Shown: positions 38,299-50,002 of the stretch, in pieces
Layout of the letters: each line of letters begins with the position of its first letter
Position numbering within the stretch: position 1 is the first letter of the stretch
From: Squalus acanthias
Taxonomy: Eukaryota
Length of the DNA: 64,000 nt
NCBI GenBank assembly: GCA_030390025.1
Contig: CM059432.1
Span: 19,098,001-19,162,000, forward strand
Reading direction: 5' to 3'
Made by a program: the position numbers and the translations under genes
The notes under the pieces: model-generated
Databases searched by the model: none
What the model saw: only the letters and a program-made list of their open reading frames with translations
Told to the model about the DNA's origin: nothing

Positions 38299-38795
38299 TA
38301 AATTACTGAAGTAATGGAATGTTGTGTTAAGTAAACCCAGAGATAGTAGGAGGCATGGAATTCGGTAATGTTATGGAAAAGAGATAAGAGTTGGAGACAG
38401 CCTTCATTCAAGAAGCTGCAGAATAGACAAACTGTTTAGAAAACACCTCAAGGATGTTCTGTGAAGCTCACAGCAGAAAAGGGGAGGGAATCATAGACCG
38501 TACTTGTGAAGGTCAGAATGGTGAGATAGCCCAAGCAGCTGCAAGTTGCTATGTATTTTGAAGAAAATAAAAGGTATAAAAGAACAGCTATTGAACACTG
38601 GAAGCAGCACGAAACCAGAGGATGAGAAGCTTCAGTCAATGAACAGACTGTGACTATCTTCTTGTTATGTATCACTTCTTTGTACTGGATGTTTAATGCT
38701 TAATAAACCTGTTTTACTGATACACAATATACCTGTACCCAGAGTGGTTTGTGTAGTCATGGACAAATTATTATAAAGAGCTTTTAAAAGCTACA
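38299..38795 (+). repeat. ERV 5' LTR (5'-truncated, ~64-bp internal deletion)
   Basis: Direct repeat of 49442-50002, roughly 95% identical by eye. TATAAA near 38575, AATAAA near 38702, ends in gctaca. Confidence 0.93.
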
Positions 38796-41750: not shown

Positions 41751-42283
41751 ATGTCGTAAACGGGAAGAATGAGGCAGCATTTAAGAAAATATACTTAAAG
41801 AATATTCAGGCCTCACTGTGAGCAGCCTTAGGGCACACTGTCAGCCACAACTCACAATGGACAGACCTTTTAAGAGATGCTAACGCTGCATGGGCCTACG
41901 CTAAAACTCAGGTTCAGTTACCAACAGCAGAAACACCAGCAGTTGAGGGACCCCAGGCCTCCCCAGCGTCACCGCCCCATAAGCAGCCCTTGATATGTTA
42001 GAACTGCGGAAAGGTGGGACACTTTGCAAAAGATTGCTGAGGTCCTAGACAGACAGGCTCTGGAGGTGGGAGGAAAAATAGTAATTACTCGCAATATGGT
42101 CCATCCCGTTCACCCAATCCAATGGAGAGTAAAATAGACGTCCTAGGCTCGTGTATGGAGAGCATGTCATGTATTATGCAAACTCTTGCATTGACCCAGA
42201 TGTCGGGGTACCCCGTGACTCCAACTATGAGCTCGTCATTCCTGCCCCCACCATTGCCCCAACAACCCAACGGCTCACAATGA

Positions 42284-45200
42284 CGGGGTCCGGCCCCACC
42301 AGCCTGGTCTGAAGTGGGGTTCAGACGAGACAGCCATGGTCGACCGGTGGTCCCAGCTTTGCTGCCTGGGGAGCCGACAGCAGACTATGCTAATAGACAC
42401 CGATTCATCTGTTTCAATCCTGCATACGCCAGACCCTGAACGCCAGCTTGAAATAGGCAAAAGTAGCTTCGTAATAACAGGAATCACCGGCGCACAGGCA
42501 CCAGCGTACTCGGGAGAGGAAGTTAGTATTGTTCTGGGTAAACTCCCCGTAAAAATCACCGATCCGTTATATATGTGTATGACAAACGAAATGGGAATAC
42601 TTGGCAATGACACCCTACGGGGAATGACAGCCATTATAGATTACAATCAGAACTGTTTGTGGGTTGAGTCTAAACCGGGAGATGTAGTGCAAATCTCAGA
42701 CGCCCACTCGGTGTTTGCTATAAAGAAGCCTGAGCAGATAGCACTGCCGACACATTCCCTGTCTGCTGTTAACTCCTAAACTGACTAAACACGCAGCAGC
42801 CTTTGCTAAGTCTAAACACAACTGTGGGGGAATGGAAGGGGAAACGCGAATTAATGGTCCACCCCATCGCGTATGTAAACAACACCCAATTCCCTGGTAA
42901 AGTATTCTGTATTTACGAACAGTCATTGCCTCATTAGAAGAACAGGGAGCACTGCGCAAAGGTTTGTTTACCACCAATTCCCCCGCATGGCCAGTTTGGA
43001 AGCCAGATGAATCCTGGAGGCTTACTATTGATTACCGAGCCCTAAACAAAGCTTCCCCACATCAGAGTCCGACTGTTAGTCAAGCCCCTTCGCCATTGAC
43101 ATCTGTAGCCCCCAAAGCTACTGTCTTCTCTACCCTAGACATAGTGAATGGATTTTGGAGTATCCCAGTTGCTCAGGAGGACCAGTACAAATTTGCTTTC
43201 ACGTTTGAGGGGCAGGGCTACACGTTTTCGTGTTTACAGCAAGGGTTTCATAACTCACCATCAATCTTTCATCAATATATGGCACGCACAGTTAAAGACT
43301 TTTCTAAACCATCAGCCCTTCTACAGTATGTTGACGACCTGCTCCTGGCTACCGAAACAATGGAGGAACACCTAAAACTTCTAGATGAGTTGATAGGGTT
43401 AGTACAGAAGGCAGGGCTGAAAATAAATCCAAAAAAGGTTCAGCTGGCAAAAGATGAGGTTATCTTTCTGGAAGTAAAGATTTCAGCGACCTCAGTCCGG
43501 ACCACCAAAAGGTAGAGACTATTCAACGACTCCCATTGCCAGTTTCGAAGACCGCACTGCGATCCTTGTTAGGCTTGGTTGGATATCAGCGAAATTTTAT
43601 TCCGAACTTTGCGGACTTGGCAAAACCTTTGTATGATCTTTTAAAGGGCGATGCGGAAGAGATACAATCCGTATGGGAAGACCACCATACTGCTGCAGTT
43701 AGTGCTTTGAAACAAGCCACGATGCAGGCTACTGCTCTCATTTCCCCGGATCACAGCCAGCCCTTCCATCTTGAAGTAGGTTCCACCCCTACCAGCCTAA
43801 CTGCCATTTTAAGTCAGACCCAAGCAATCAGCGAGACACTAAGCCCCATTGCGTACGCCTCACGTATTTTACGAGTGGTAGAAAGCACATTCTCAGCGTG
43901 TGAGTGCCACCTGTTGGCCACATTTTGGGCAGTCAATCATTTTACTTATATCACCGGACTGCAGAAAGTGACTTTGCATTCACCACACACGCCCCTTAAT
44001 CTGCTGGTAAAACCAAGTGAGACTAAGGTGTCCTCTCAGCGAATCAGTAAATGGACACTTGAATTGTTACAGCGAGACCTGGACATTACTCCTAAACAAA
44101 CTACACCGTTACCTTTTATGCTTGCCTATGAGGGAAGCCCACACCAGTGCCCATTACCAATACTAAATATGGAACCAAACCCAGTAAAGGCCAATGCCAT
44201 ACCTGGAGCTCGAAATGTGTATGTAGACGGATCATCATACTATGTAGACGGCCATCCTGGAACTGGATGTGCCCTCATTGATATGGACGCTCTCGATTGG
44301 TCAGTGGGATTCCAGGTTCCCGCCCACTCCTCCCAACAAGCAGAACTAATTGCTGTAATTCTCGCCACTCACTACACAACTACGGATGAAACTAATAGCT
44401 GGTCCAACAGCAGCTACGTCTGTAATGCAGTTATGGCCCTTCCCCTATATTGTACACATGAGTTTTGCTCATCAGATGGTAAATCTTTATTACATTCTGG
44501 TCTCCTTCGTAAGCTATGGAAAGTGCTCCAGGAGCAAGTCGCTCCCTGTCATGTCGGAAAGGTAGCAGCCCATCAGAAAGATTCATCTCCCCACTCCTGA
44601 GGAAGCTGCCGAGAACGGCTGTCTATTGCCTTGGTAGGTGACGAATGACACTCAGACGCCCGTAGTGGGGGCGGTAACTAAAACCAAAACCATTGATCGT
44701 TTGGCCCTACAGGATTCACACGCTCCCTATGCGCAAGTAATAGCCTGGCATGAACAGGGACGCCCACTACCAGCACCCACCCCATGGGCAAACGCAACTA
44801 TAGTACAACATGTGGCGGATAAAAACCCTCCCCTGCTAATGGTTAAAAACAAAGAGGGAGACTTAGTAGTTTGTATTCCTCCTCAGTTGAAGGAAGAAAT
44901 TCTAGCCCTCTTCCATTCCCACCCGATGGCGGGACATTACTCAGCGGCCACTACACTACAAACATTATTATCTGTTTGCTGATGGCCTGAAATGGAGCAG
45001 CATGTGGAACAACCTGTTAATCGCTGCCTGCCATGCCTACAAACAAACCCTCCTTCATGTTCTAATCGTGCCTTGTTTAGGTCACAGCCCCCTCCCGAGG
45101 GACCATGGACTCACCTACAGATTGACTTTATTGGCCCGCTAACAAAATCCAAGGGTAACTACGAGTACGCACTCGTGGTAATTGATCAGTTCACTAAATG

Positions 45201-45970
45201 GATAGAGGCGTTTCCCACAAGAAACAATAAAGCGCGCAATGCTGCCCGAATTCTCCGGAGTGAGGTGTTCTGTAGGTAGGGATTACCGCTACAAGTGGAT
45301 AGTGATCAGGGTCCACACTTCACGGGGGCAGTTTTCACAACCCTACAAGAAATGTTACAGCACATTGCGCACCATCCACAATCATCAGGGATTGTGGAGA
45401 GGGGGAATTGAACTCTAAAAACAATGCTGCAGAAGCTGTGTACAGAACACCCCACTCAGTGGACTAACATGTTGCCCTTATGTTTAATGGCAATACGTTC
45501 CACCCCACACGGGACTACGAGGCTAAGTCCATATGAGGCTATGACTGGGAGACAAATGCGGATACCAGGACATGTAACATTGGGGAATAACACATCATTA
45601 AAGTTACAACCCTGTAGTCAAAAATGGTTACAAACCTTGATAGATCATATGGACGAGGTGAACAGGCTGGTGGCCATTAACACAGGCAAATCGCGTGAAC
45701 AAATCAAGCGATATTATGATAAGAGGGTAAAACCACTTGAGTATGCGGTTGGGGACCGGGTAATGTTACAAAATTTCTCTCCAAAAAAACACTCATTCGA
45801 GGTAAAATGGAGGGGCCCTCATACCACAGTAGATAAATTAAATCCAGCTGTGTATCTACTGAATGTGCCAGATGGTCCGAAGGGAGAACCTAAACTAAAA
45901 TGGTTCCATATCAATCAGATGAAAACTGTTAAGAATCAAGATGTTACATTTTGGTCTACCCACAGGTTAA
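42284..45970 (+). pseudogene. pol: ERV pol: protease, RT, degenerate RNase H tether, RNase H, integrase
   Basis: PR: LIDTDSS and GILGND. RT: WRLTIDYRALN, LDIVNGFW, QGFHNSP, QYVDD. RNase H: VYVDGSS, QQAELIA. IN: HSHPMAGH/CLPC, LQIDFIGP, SDQGPHF, GIVER, WRGPH. Confidence 0.92.
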
Positions 45971-45972
45971 AG

Positions 45973-48900
45973 ATGTGGCTCTGTATACTGATATTGATGA
46001 CTGGATGTGCAGTGAGCTCTACGGAGGTAACAAAAACTTTTGACATTACCATTAACATCTGTACACCGGATCAAGGAGGCGAATGCGCCCCACTCCCCAT
46101 CTATGGAACGGAACCTTAAATTGTTTGCGGACATAAACAATCAAAGAACCATAGTGGTTCATCTGAGACATATGGGGGGAGTATTCCGGTTTGGATCAGA
46201 AACAGTACAAAAGATAATGTAACAACAACATATGTGACGGGTTGTGGTACATTACAAGAAAAGGTGTATAGTTGGGAAATAAAAGAAGGATATAGTGTGT
46301 GTATCAGGTGCGGGATAAGGGACAGCAAAGGCCCAAATGTGTGGCAATTCCTGAAGAAAAATAATAGAATCTGGGAACAGGTACAAGAATCAAACCAGGG
46401 CCTAGTAGCTTCAGAGAGCAAGGAATACATACAATTATGCTGGCCTCGGTGGTGGAAGAAACACACCGGCCAGTATTCTTGTATTGGGTCAAATATTATC
46501 TCGACCCTAAAAATCAGGGTGATGATTGGCCTTCTATCCCCGAAGATAATATGAAGATTACTTCAGCAGGGAATGAACCCTTTATGACAACCTTTAAATG
46601 TTGGGGAAATTATAGGGACCCCGAGAATGAAGATAGCAGCATAGTAGAATTCAAAAATGCAACAACTGGGTGTCTAAGGGAGGATGGGTATTTCTATAGC
46701 ATTAGGCTCACACCCTATGAGAAAACAAACCATTCAGAACCCCAAGAGGGAGTACTCGAGAAACAATGCCCCCACTTAAAACCGGGACCTAGGAATGGTC
46801 TTGTAATTATCCCTACCTATAAAGCAGTGCATCATCAAGTAATAGCAGAAGTGGCCCCTGTTATCCTCAATTTAACAGACCTAATACTACCAAAGTGGTG
46901 CCCTGACAAAACCGCGCAATTAACTCAAAGAATGCTGCAGCACATTGTTAGCAAATACTGGGAAAAGGCGACTTTGTCGACGAGCATAGAGAAAACAGAA
47001 GAGGCCTTCCGCCACGAGCTTAGTACCACTCAAGAGGAAAGCCAGGGAAAGAGTAGGCGGAGAAGAGAATTGATAAATGATGGGCTCACAGGTTTCAACA
47101 CAGTAACCTCAATAGTTAACTCAATGGACTCTGCAGATTTACAGAGACAAATACAAATGGTAAGGGAGAAATTGAAGGAGATACTCAGTAAGGAAAACAG
47201 CATAGAAAGCGAGGAGCTAAGGGAGGATTAGGTAATGACCATACACCTGCGGGATATCATACACGAGATAGAGGATCACGCCAAAAGAATTAATGATCTG
47301 ATTAGAGAAAACAGAAATGCCTCTGATCAAGCAGCCCATAATGACGTACGCATTATGTACAGGAATTGGCTGATTGAGCAAACTAGGGAAAACCTTCAGA
47401 CCATCAACAAGGGACGTCTCCCCACTTGGGTCACTAATAAACACTTATCAGGGCTATCCAGTTATTACGATGATACAGAACTATGTAAGATCAGAAGTTT
47501 GATTAGGATCCACCCCGTCAAACACGAATGCCATGAGGTAGGGAGTCAAAGGTTGATGGGACTAATACTACAAATTCCTAGTCTAATGAATCGAACCAGG
47601 CCCAACCCCCTATTTCGAATAGAGAATATAGGAGTAGTAAAGGGAAATACTATTAACCGATTTCTCACGGCACCACAATGGTTAGTACAGTTAGAAAAAC
47701 TAACATGGATTGAACCAAACCTACAAGGATGTAATACAAATGAGGATGCCCTTGTTTGCCCATACAGTTTGTACGATCATTCAAAGGACACCTGTGGGTA
47801 TGGTTGGAATGAAGGAAGGTTAAACTGTACTATGGAAGTGACAGGCCCCTCAGATGTAAGAACTAGGACAGCCTACATATGAGAAGGGAGGTATTGTTTT
47901 ACCACTTTAGAAAACTCTTTTAATCACGGAACACTTGAATGTTCAATAACCCCAGGGACCTACTGTATCACACCCACAAAGACTACGGTAATAGGAGGAA
48001 GGATTCTCCTTGCAATAGCCTCACATTACAAGTAGAAGATGATTTAAATATAAATCTAGAAGATTATGTCACTAAATTCGGATATGATAGCCCTGAGCTA
48101 CCTGAAGCCTTAACCGAATTAATAAATCAAGTGAGCACCTCCCAATGCCATTATTATACACTGGTGCAAAGGAATAAAGCCATAGCCAAGGAAATTCCAG
48201 ATATCGAAGATCAAACACACTGGTGGGACATAGGGACAAACATGGAAATTCCTCCTTGGATTAGGATAATTTCCCATGTACTGGTCATACCCAACTCGTA
48301 GTACTGATATGCTTACTATTCCACACCTGCTACCTGAAACACCTAGGGCTGGATTTTGAATGACCCATGGAGTCGGGTTTGGAGGCGTGTGGGGGGTTAA
48401 ATTTGCGGGGTCGGGGTTTCCGACCCCATCCCGACTCCATCCCGCCTGCACGCAATTTTAACAAAATCAGTCACGGGGTTCCCGACTCCGTCCCGCCTCC
48501 AAGAGGCGGGAGAGGCCATTACAGCCCTTAACAAGCCCTAAATTGGGTCTGTAATGCTATTTTGAATCGTTGTAGCTAGTTTAACCCATTTCTGACGTGA
48601 AGTACGCCTGGTGTGAAACACTCCAGTGAAACCTGGCGGGAGCACAAGTGGATAGCTGACTATGAGCTGCAGGTCCACTATTACAACGGAGATGTGATGA
48701 AGGTCGTAGTAGTATTAGGTCTTAAAGTCGCCTCTGATGCTGCTGCATTGAATGTCTTCAGAGACTGCCTGGCCTTTGCTGCGAGAGGACTTGGATGGAA
48801 AAAAATTCATTCTCTCTCTCTCTCTCTCTCTCATATATATCAATTTTCTATCCAGGTCCAATCACATCAAAAGCCAGGCAGGTCCTCTCTGACCAGCAGC

Positions 48901-49218
48901 CAGACAATCTCTGAGAGCAGGCAGTCAGCAATGATGACATCATCACAGGCGGGTTTCAGGCTGAAACCACTAATTGGTTCATGGGTTCCCACATGCTGGA
49001 ACTCAATTGCCCAATTAAGTTAAAATTGCATCATTCATCCACATTAATCTGGAGTCGGGGGGGAAACACGAAATGTGGAGGACATGACCTCAACCCGACC
49101 CCAAGACAAAATCCAGCCCCTAATGTACGAAACCCGATCCCATTTAAATATGATCACAACCCAGAATATCTTAGAGTTACATAAACGTGGGAGAACAAAC
49201 CCGTATGTAAGATTTTAG
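45973..49218 (+). pseudogene. env: ERV env: signal peptide, Ig-like domain, F-like class I fusion protein, TM and tail
   Basis: Signal MWLCILILMTGCAVSS, furin site RRRR at 47055-47066, heptad region, Cys-rich region, TM ~48265-48335. The tail ends YVRF* once the MITE is removed. Confidence 0.82.
48346..49119. mobile_element. Harbinger-type MITE inserted in the env tail
   Basis: TIR gggctggatttt/aaaatccagccc, TSD cta, same family as 58823-59703. Confidence 0.88.
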
Positions 49219-49248
49219 TTTTGAAGGGTCGGCAAAATGCCTCACCCT

Positions 49249-49261
49249 CAAGGTAGGGATC
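49249..49261 (+). promoter_or_regulatory. Polypurine tract
   Basis: aaggtagggatc immediately precedes the TG of the 3' LTR. Confidence 0.6.
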
Positions 49262-50002
49262 TGTAGGATAGAGTGTACCTGTAGGATTTAGTAAACATTA
49301 TTAAGATTCTATAATCATTTTTATATAACTATAATATGTGAAATTGTATGTTAAAAACCTAAAAAGCCTGTATAAAATGGCGAATGGCTGAGACCAAAGC
49401 AGGATGGGAAATTATGCCAACCTGACTTAAAACCTCTGTTATAAATTACTGAAGTAATGGAATGTTGTGTTAAGTAAACCCAGAGATAGTAGGAGGCATG
49501 AAATTCGGTAATGTTATGGAAAAGAGATAGGAGTTGGAGACAGCCTTCATTCAAGAAACTGCAGAATAGACAAACTGTTTAGAAAACACCTCAAGGATGT
49601 TCTGTGAAGCTCACAGCAGAAAAGGGGAGGGAATCATAGACCGTACTTGTGAAGGTCAGAATGGTGAGATAGCCCAAGCAGCTGCAAGTTGCTATGTATT
49701 TTGAAGGGAAAAAAAGGTATAAAGGAACAACTATTGAACACTGGAAGCAGCACGAAACTAGAGGATGAGAAGCTTCAGTCAACAGAACACAGCAAGAGCA
49801 TAAAGAGACCGCGCCGCAGTCACTCGGAAGGAACGCCGGGATTCAATAAACAGACTGCGACTATCTTCTTGTTAAGTATTATTTCTTTGTACTGGATGTT
49901 TAATGCTTAATAAACCTGTTTTACTGATACACAATATACCTGGACCCAGAGTGCTTTGTGTAGTTACGGACAAATGATTATAAGGAGCTTTTAAAAGCTA
50001 CA
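49262..50002 (+). repeat. ERV 3' LTR (741 bp)
   Basis: Inverted termini tgtag...ctaca; direct repeat of the 5' LTR. Confidence 0.92.

Follow-up and report, generated by a model that had tools for sequence, protein, structure and literature searches.

We analysed a 64,000-nucleotide stretch of the Squalus acanthias genome (assembly GCA_030390025.1, contig CM059432.1, positions 19,098,001 to 19,162,000 of the forward strand), hereafter the window, and identified in it an endogenous retrovirus (ERV) whose envelope gene (env) carries an immunoglobulin (Ig)-like segment at 46243-46604. We propose, with a probability of about 0.6, that this segment is a genuine Ig-fold domain, that it forms the N-terminal head of the surface subunit (SU) of an elasmobranch ERV Env and is ancestral to at least two env clades, and that it most likely serves as a receptor-binding module. 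The domain is real and conserved, is read in the env frame, was under purifying selection and is linked in one open reading frame (ORF) to the fusion half of the protein. The window holds only a broken copy, with a stop codon upstream of the domain and a frameshift within the loop between its strands F and G (FG loop). To our knowledge, the only retroviral Envs known to bear Ig-type receptor-binding heads are of the gamma type.

An earlier note, made from the letters of the window alone, had placed an Ig domain in this env ahead of the fusion module, and our analyses support that reading. From the ATG at 45973 the env frame has, as the note said, a single TAA at 46117-46119; past it the frame reads WEIKEGYSVCIRC .. 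NVWQFL .. YIQLCWP .. HTGQYSC, and the Cys codons at 46309-46311 and 46480-46482 lie 57 residues apart, again as described. The far end of the domain requires revision. The frameshift, which the note had put near 46530, falls at ~46503-46512, as the match to other copies ends at residue 131 (46512) and tblastn switches frame at 46503-46512. Because of this frameshift the 'IRV' part of the proposed G strand, 'TLKIRV', is read out of frame, and the actual conserved G segment, PFMTTFK.W, lies in the next frame at 46578-46604. The family alignment thus carries the domain past 46527, the end given before, to this segment beyond an inserted loop. The layout of env in the window is as follows (clade B is a second env clade described below).

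45973-46020 (+): env start and hydrophobic, signal-peptide-like N-terminus (MWLCILILMTGCAVSS); a putative signal peptide from the translation, kept in other copies
46117-46119 (+): in-frame TAA stop that breaks env of the window copy; a sense codon in other copies
46243-46494 (+): Ig-like domain, strands A to F, assigned by homology to the AlphaFold2 (AF2) model of the clade-B domain; landmarks are a Cys ahead of strand A (46243), 'EG' (46285-46290), CxxC (46300-46311, with the canonical B-strand Cys at 46309), the C-strand Trp (46342), an E-strand Cys-Trp (46438-46443) and G-x-Y-x-C (46468-46482)
46495-46577 (+): FG-loop insertion of lineage-dependent length, containing the window copy's frameshift (~46503-46512)
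46578-46604 (+): PFMTTFKCW, probably strand G, read in the frame of 46506; aligns with a conserved segment that ends in a nearly invariant Trp in both clades
46605-46790 (+): presumed beta-rich linker that has conserved Cys and joins the Ig-like domain to the pre-cleavage block, from the alignment
46791-47051 (+): pre-cleavage block, the most conserved part (NGLVIIPT .. VILNLT .. WCP and a helix-like stretch)
47052-47066 (+): polybasic furin-type cleavage motif SRRRR
47067-48350 (+): fusion half (transmembrane subunit, TM), interrupted by two stops (47229, 47880) and two frameshifts (near 48026 and near 48290)

An Ig-like domain in two env clades

The Ig-like segment is widespread in the genome. 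Our search of the 3.7 Gb assembly returned at least 150 scored matches among 2881 candidates, ranging from 100 to 43% identity. ORFs of 748 and 654 amino acids (aa) run from a signal peptide through the Ig-like segment and a polybasic site into the fusion half, and a 663-aa frame of the window's own subfamily starts just ahead of the domain and continues likewise. The earlier note's single env protein is therefore borne out in other copies, which hold the Ig-like domain, the furin site and the fusion half in one ORF.

Searching with the most divergent copy, L036, uncovered the second env clade, clade B, whose Ig segments are 20-27% identical to those of the window's subfamily (clade A). Its motif is the more canonical of the two (PCPQLKI..VRVTEGKRVCLRC..WWWLRK..GVEVCW..GIYVCV..VSIAFIRQW, with VTEGKRVCLRC between PCPQLKI and WWWLRK), and a 796-aa clade-B ORF has the same overall layout as the clade-A env. 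Nearly invariant in both clades are the Cys ahead of strand A, the E-G pair, the first Cys of CxxC, the C-strand Trp, a Leu, a Lys and W-E, followed by the E-strand Trp, W-W, G-x-Y-x-C and the G-strand Trp; by position these include W42, G84, Y86 and C88. In the alignment that includes public relatives, the E-strand Cys reaches 90% as well, as does the canonical B-strand Cys. Of 32 aligned rows, 26 have both canonical Cys. Since the domain is common to two env clades only 20-27% identical, it is old and, on our reading, ancestral to at least these two.

Clade B (L056-L070, on other contigs of the genome, for example L070:161-2551:-) is very abundant and young, with many open frames of ~800 aa and at least 119 places that are 90-100% identical to one query. 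A sub-lineage made up of L037:2297-2692:- and L038:2323-2718:- lacks the canonical B-strand Cys and the E-strand Cys together and keeps the other Cys of CxxC and the F-strand Cys; its members may pair their disulfides otherwise than assumed here, or may be copies that multiplied after death. In one clade-B copy, L065:229-600:+, a dinucleotide repeat has expanded within the F strand, which reads as VCVCVCVCACVCV.

Protein searches yielded 10 public relatives, all from elasmobranchs (Rhinoraja longicauda, Pristiophorus japonicus, Scyliorhinus torazame) or of unnamed source, and labelled 'uncharacterized' or 'hypothetical' or buried in chimeric gene models. Half of them (5/10) span the N-terminus, and all five of these have the motif, skate and sawshark sequences among them. 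A homologous-protein search with residues 1-400 of a clade-A ORF found nothing. The sawshark models P0007 and P0013 ('Niban 1-like' and 'ZFP2-like') are chimeras in which pieces of this retroviral env are joined to host exons. The at least 150 matching copies, the second clade and the other elasmobranchs confirm that the frame chosen in the earlier note is the coding one and that the segment is not a private insertion.

Nei-Gojobori ratios of nonsynonymous to synonymous change (dN/dS) between lineages are 0.11-0.25 for the Ig core (strands A to F), as low as in the pre-cleavage block (0.12-0.38), and 0.17-0.38 for the beta-rich linker. Because these values are low, and because decay after integration can only raise such ratios, we conclude that the frame is coding and that the Ig-like framework was under strong purifying selection while the virus replicated.

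The FG loop varies in length, and the dN/dS of its insertion is 0.31-1.15, a range based on 3-7 synonymous and 9-16 nonsynonymous differences. Counted between the Cys of strand F and the Trp of strand G, the distance is 19 residues in every one of the 13 rows of clade B. It rises to 26 in L036 and L041, to 40-42 in L037/L038 as well as the window's subfamily, and to 54 in a subfamily with a tandem duplication. Given the spacing of 40-42 against 19, the window lineage has an FG-loop insertion of ~21 residues (46495-46577). The duplication, found in L026:1600-2034:+ and its relatives and absent from the window's subfamily, repeats ~14 residues within the insertion (IPEYDVKITSAGYE / IPRDDIEITAAEHK).

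Evidence for an Ig fold

Independent comparisons point to the Ig superfamily (IgSF). The 144-aa frame piece of the window matches Pfam Ig_3 with E=0.0024 and 18.8 bits, against a cut-off of 30 bits. Of 60 family pieces, 17 match Ig_3 at the corresponding place (best E=3.6e-5), with 'ig' and I-set each matching in 2, and Ig_3 also matches in 4 of 6 clade-B ORFs and in the 796-aa ORF. The Cys spacing of 57 fits the range of ~55-75 between strands B and F of Ig domains, HMMER places both residues opposite the canonical Cys pair in MLCK, DIP-alpha and CD8 alpha, and the C-strand Trp and F-strand G-x-Y-x-C of Ig domains are both present.

Profile searches against the Protein Data Bank (PDB) gave a similar picture. 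A one-clade profile retrieved a single chain, the Ig domain of smooth-muscle MLCK (E=0.12). With both clades in the profile, 22 chains were matched at E<=10 and 18 of them were IgSF proteins, led by DIP-alpha (3.9e-4) and including CD8 alpha (0.0053), MLCK (0.0073), neuroplastin, neurotrimin, contactin-6, Dscam, basigin, CRTAM, a single-chain antibody fragment (scFv) and Robo1. Once four public relatives had contributed their segments to the profile, it matched 33 chains at E<=1, of which 27 were IgSF (best 1.3e-4). The B-strand Cys and Y-x-C fall in register in these alignments. A whole-Env profile matched four chains, all of them Ig domains and all on the Ig-like segment. The whole 748-aa ORF in phmmer gave only a chance coiled-coil row in the PDB (E=4.4), and the Ig segment gave no usable match in the ESM Atlas.

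The AF2 model of the clade-B domain (124 aa, 32-row alignment) has a mean predicted local distance difference test score (pLDDT) of 65.3 and a predicted template modelling score (pTM) of 0.59. Its strands, at residues 22-26, 32-37, 45-50, 62-64, 71-76, 79-84 and 93-99, correspond to A', B, C, C', D, E and F, with a short turn before F, and the G strand, at the place of 46578-46604, is weak. All 48 of the 48 rows listed by Foldseek for this model are entries that hold antibody-type V domains. The Ig fold of the window's own lineage is predicted by homology to this modelled domain.

The alternative is that the segment is some other small, beta-rich, disulfide-bonded domain in which EG..C, W and G.Y.C arose by convergence or chance, and several results weigh on that side. 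The gathering thresholds of Pfam Ig_3 (PF13927) and I-set (PF07679) were reached by no member, so that every sequence match lies below a curated threshold; three long ORFs scanned whole had no Ig match at E<=10, and none was seen in two of six clade-B ORFs, L036 or L037. The profile searches also matched a few non-Ig proteins (ArfGAP1 at E=9.4e-4, MOG1 and CapZ). Aligned by hhalign to 12 titin I-set domains of the host, the Env Ig profiles gave a probability of 2% (P ~0.02), in the right register and too weak to count. The sole usable model is that of a homologue 20-27% identical to the window's domain, has middling confidence and barely forms the G strand; the N-terminal 258 aa of the window's subfamily, modelled from a one-clade alignment, did not fold usably (pLDDT 30.4). 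Foldseek gave no match at E<=0.001 for the clade-B model (best 0.015, TM-scores of 0.42-0.55), and the lineage of L037/L038 lacks the canonical B-strand Cys. Yet independent weak matches agree on superfamily and register in two clades only 20-27% identical, the whole-Env profile finds only Ig domains in the PDB, and the strand order of the model and its ranked structural neighbours are uniformly Ig. We therefore regard a non-Ig domain as improbable and an Ig fold as very probable, on support that is consistent but moderate. Of the fold check proposed in the earlier note, the Pfam Ig_3 matches did recur, none of them passed its cut-off, and the structural half of the check comes down to the middling clade-B model with its Foldseek neighbours above E=0.001. 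Because no member reached the cut-off, we class the domain as Ig-like and not as a member of Pfam Ig_3 or I-set.

A different known Ig-like element was considered and rejected. The segment does not correspond to the Ig-like domain II of the fusion (F) protein scaffold (PMC11468914), as domain II follows the heptad repeat in the TM half, whereas the Ig-like domain lies ~190 residues before the cleavage site.

Role and origin of the domain

The intact protein would comprise, in order, a signal peptide, a short leader with Cys, then the Ig-like domain, the beta-rich linker, the pre-cleavage block, the furin site and a long class-I fusion half. We envisage that the Env precursor is translocated, trimerised and cleaved at the polybasic site, leaving the N-terminal Ig-like head outside the fusion scaffold, where its loop end would bind a host surface molecule. 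The FG loop, which occupies a position like that of complementarity-determining region 3 (CDR3), would be the part that grew and changed between lineages while the framework stayed constant, and binding by the head would release the fusion half.

Attachment is the most likely role of the domain. Instead, it could cap the prefusion trimer, shielding or stabilising it, or its surface could modulate immunity or act as a decoy. Receptor binding would then fall to the beta-rich region downstream or to the fusion scaffold, which in pneumovirus F is able to bind a receptor by itself. The region at 46605-46790 is conserved too and under purifying selection of its own (the linker ratios given above), and the receptor-binding module of foamy viruses is a separate unit of another fold (PMC11468914), so that F-type scaffolds vary in their solution. 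What tips the balance is that class-I proteins usually put their attachment modules in an independent N-terminal head (PMC11468914; for gamma-type Envs, bioRxiv 10.1101/2024.03.17.585361), and that the most variable part of the domain is the loop at the CDR3-like position, which suits a contact surface and would equally suit an antibody target. We consider a domain without receptor-binding function unlikely.

The earlier note suggested that the domain was captured from the host and proposed to identify its closest cellular homolog. A capture recent enough for the cellular donor to be named would be in keeping with the signature of the domain, which is closer to cellular I-set and V-set domains than RBD-C, the gamma-type Envs' receptor-binding domain (RBD), is said to be, and it has a precedent in the capture of a SIRP-like IgV domain by a retroviral Env (bioRxiv 10.1101/2024.03.17.585361). 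Our data give no sign of it. The clade-A profile of the N-terminal 258 aa matched 0 proteins at E<=0.001 among 1.84 billion, and the best cellular Ig matches, at E ~1e-4 and ~20% identity, are scattered over unrelated IgSF proteins (DIP-alpha, neurotrimin, CD8 alpha, CRTAM, basigin and MLCK). Titin I-set domains of the host reached only the P=0.02 reported above, and the domain is older than the split between the env clades. With no donor match, scattered similarity in the PDB and a domain that predates the clade split, recent capture appears very improbable, and no cellular donor can be named. An ancient capture of an Ig domain from a host may still have taken place.

The provirus, its fusion half and known Env systems

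The provirus occupies 38.3-50.0 kb of the window, where direct repeats enclose pol remnants followed by env.

38299-38795 (+): 5' long terminal repeat (LTR), the part detected as direct repeat, from repeat pairing with the 3' LTR
42231-45972 (+): pol remnants in several frames (protease, reverse transcriptase (RT), RNase H, integrase), from Pfam matches
49442-50002 (+): 3' LTR, the part detected as direct repeat, from repeat pairing with the 5' LTR

The repeat pairs are 97% (38299-38598 / 49442-49741) and 93% (38636-38795 / 49843-50002) identical. Pfam matches in pol are RVP, RVT_1 (E=2.8e-31), RT_RNaseH_2, RNase_H, Integrase_H2C2 and rve. The foamy-virus protease-RT is the best match of the RT piece among solved structures (E=2.1e-34, 122 bits), ahead of Ty3 (88 bits), MLV (60) and HIV (47-59), so the element is classed as foamy-like (class III-like) by pol, in a best-match comparison against the PDB, which has no lokiretrovirus RT. 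The env of the window copy is dead, with stops at 46117, 47229 and 47880 and frameshifts at ~46503-46512, near 48026 and near 48290. About 1 kb (48350-49440) separates the end of env from the 3' LTR repeat and contains ORFs of 140 and 89 aa; this segment may be an accessory gene or plain decay, and neither its small ORFs nor the gag region gave a Pfam match.

The pre-cleavage block has the family consensus NGLV.IPT .. VILNLT .. WCP, whose columns are nearly invariant, and from the order of its motifs we infer that it is an F2-like part. Both env clades keep, almost without exception, an N-L-T glycosylation sequon just ahead of the helix-like stretch (46869-46877 in the window). A single R-x-K/R-R site lies at the homologous place in four of the five long ORFs examined. 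Behind it, the fusion half has a polar/hydrophobic segment, a long helical-looking repeat, a Cys-rich beta region, a second helix-like stretch and a membrane anchor (near 48255-48345), with ~340 residues between the cleavage site and the anchor.

Five long ORFs have neither C-x6-CC, looked for in their TM half, nor any CC dipeptide, and the only CXXC of SU is that of the Ig B strand. Because C-x6-CC, which in gamma-type Envs pairs with a CXXC in SU, was not found, the env is judged from its motifs not to be gamma-type. Nor does it read as a foamy-virus env, although pol is foamy-like: Foamy_virus_ENV (PF03408) had no match at E<=10 in P0004, P0005, the L034 ORF or the L070 ORF. True PF03408 env remnants occur at 11 places in the genome (for example G000:C6:123319039-123320142; best E=3.2e-22) and do not belong to the window's env family. 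An F-type fusion half is suggested as a lead by the ESM Atlas, in which the clusters nearest to the clade-B fusion half are Baculo_F, Fusion_gly and CoV_S2 (0.91-0.94; Fusion_gly/Baculo_F 0.93-0.94). At the sequence level, hmmscan found no Pfam Fusion_gly (PF00523) in the fusion half and the PDB profile search no F or foamy Env chain; a genome-wide search for PF00523 (F0), which was run at reduced sensitivity and so shows little, had no match either.

The earlier note knew of no retroviral env with this architecture, a statement that is too wide. The gamma-type RBD-C of MLV, FeLV and HERV-Pb1 is described as a modified IgV-like domain, and a SIRP-like IgV RBD captured from the host by an alpha-like Env has been reported (bioRxiv 10.1101/2024.03.17.585361). 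As in those Envs, whose enlarged variable loops are described as carrying receptor specificity, the domain studied here would be an independently folding Ig-type unit at the N-terminus of SU. It differs from RBD-C Envs in that its env is not gamma-type, its post-cleavage ectodomain is far longer and its sequence signature is nearer to cellular I-set/V-set domains. RBD-C structures were absent from the profile matches (E<=10; E<=1) and from the Foldseek neighbours listed, which is absence of evidence only.

With cellular I-set/V-set domains (DIP-alpha, neurotrimin, CD8 alpha, MLCK/telokin, basigin) the Env domain shares a B strand of the form EG-x-x-V-x-L-x-C, the C-strand Trp, an F strand of the form G-x-Y-x-C-x-x-x-N and the Cys spacing of 57. 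Unlike them, it shows only ~15-25% identity and sub-threshold scores in these comparisons, has extra Cys (the strand-B CxxC and the strand-E Cys-Trp) and a W-x-x-W-W ahead of strand F, and in the window lineage has an FG segment ~21 residues longer.

Shark foamy-like ERVs have been described from pol only (PMC5512871) or without detectable Env domains (PMC10699275). In the literature we consulted, which covered cartilaginous-fish endogenous foamy viruses incompletely, we found no env of this kind described as having an Ig-like domain. Lokiretrovirus Envs are reported to resemble F; the abstract of that paper has no cartilaginous fishes in its host list, and the paper uses the word 'immunoglobulin' 0 times (PMC7947760). 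The Env described here has the same order of signal peptide, R-x-K-R site, fusion peptide, coiled coil and TM anchor as the lokiretrovirus Env and paramyxo-/pneumovirus F (PMC7947760); the F2 of F proteins, in contrast, has no N-terminal extension of ~260 aa.

Foamy-virus Env is described as an F-like scaffold into which an RBD of a different, non-Ig fold is inserted, and F-type scaffolds as able to take receptor-binding modules N-terminally (coronavirus spike) or by insertion (foamy virus) (PMC11468914). The present element resembles foamy viruses with gp130 Env in its foamy-like RT, in a class-I Env with a long fusion half and in a receptor-binding module, putative here, added to the fusion scaffold. 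It is unlike them in having a short putative signal peptide instead of the foamy leader peptide and an N-terminal head where the foamy RBD is inserted.

Tentatively, an ancient foamy-like retrovirus of cartilaginous fishes might have acquired an Ig domain of cellular type and fused it N-terminally to an F-type (paramyxovirus/foamy-like) scaffold, with the FG loop, grown by insertion and tandem duplication, acting as a receptor-switching determinant. We hold this fuller scenario to be doubtful. If true, attachment and fusion would be combined in one Env protein, in a design that has not been described for retroviruses. The coronavirus spike and the foamy-virus RBD would then be joined by a third independent way in which an F scaffold is armed to bind a receptor.

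An Ig-type RBD on a retroviral Env is thus known already, and the comparisons suggest that the new element is a conserved Ig-like head on this elasmobranch, non-gamma Env. Such a small soluble domain would offer a handle for finding the receptor of an abundant elasmobranch retrovirus lineage. Placed on a long and probably F-type fusion protein, the conserved Ig-like head would add a case for the repeated acquisition of attachment modules by the F scaffold (PMC11468914).

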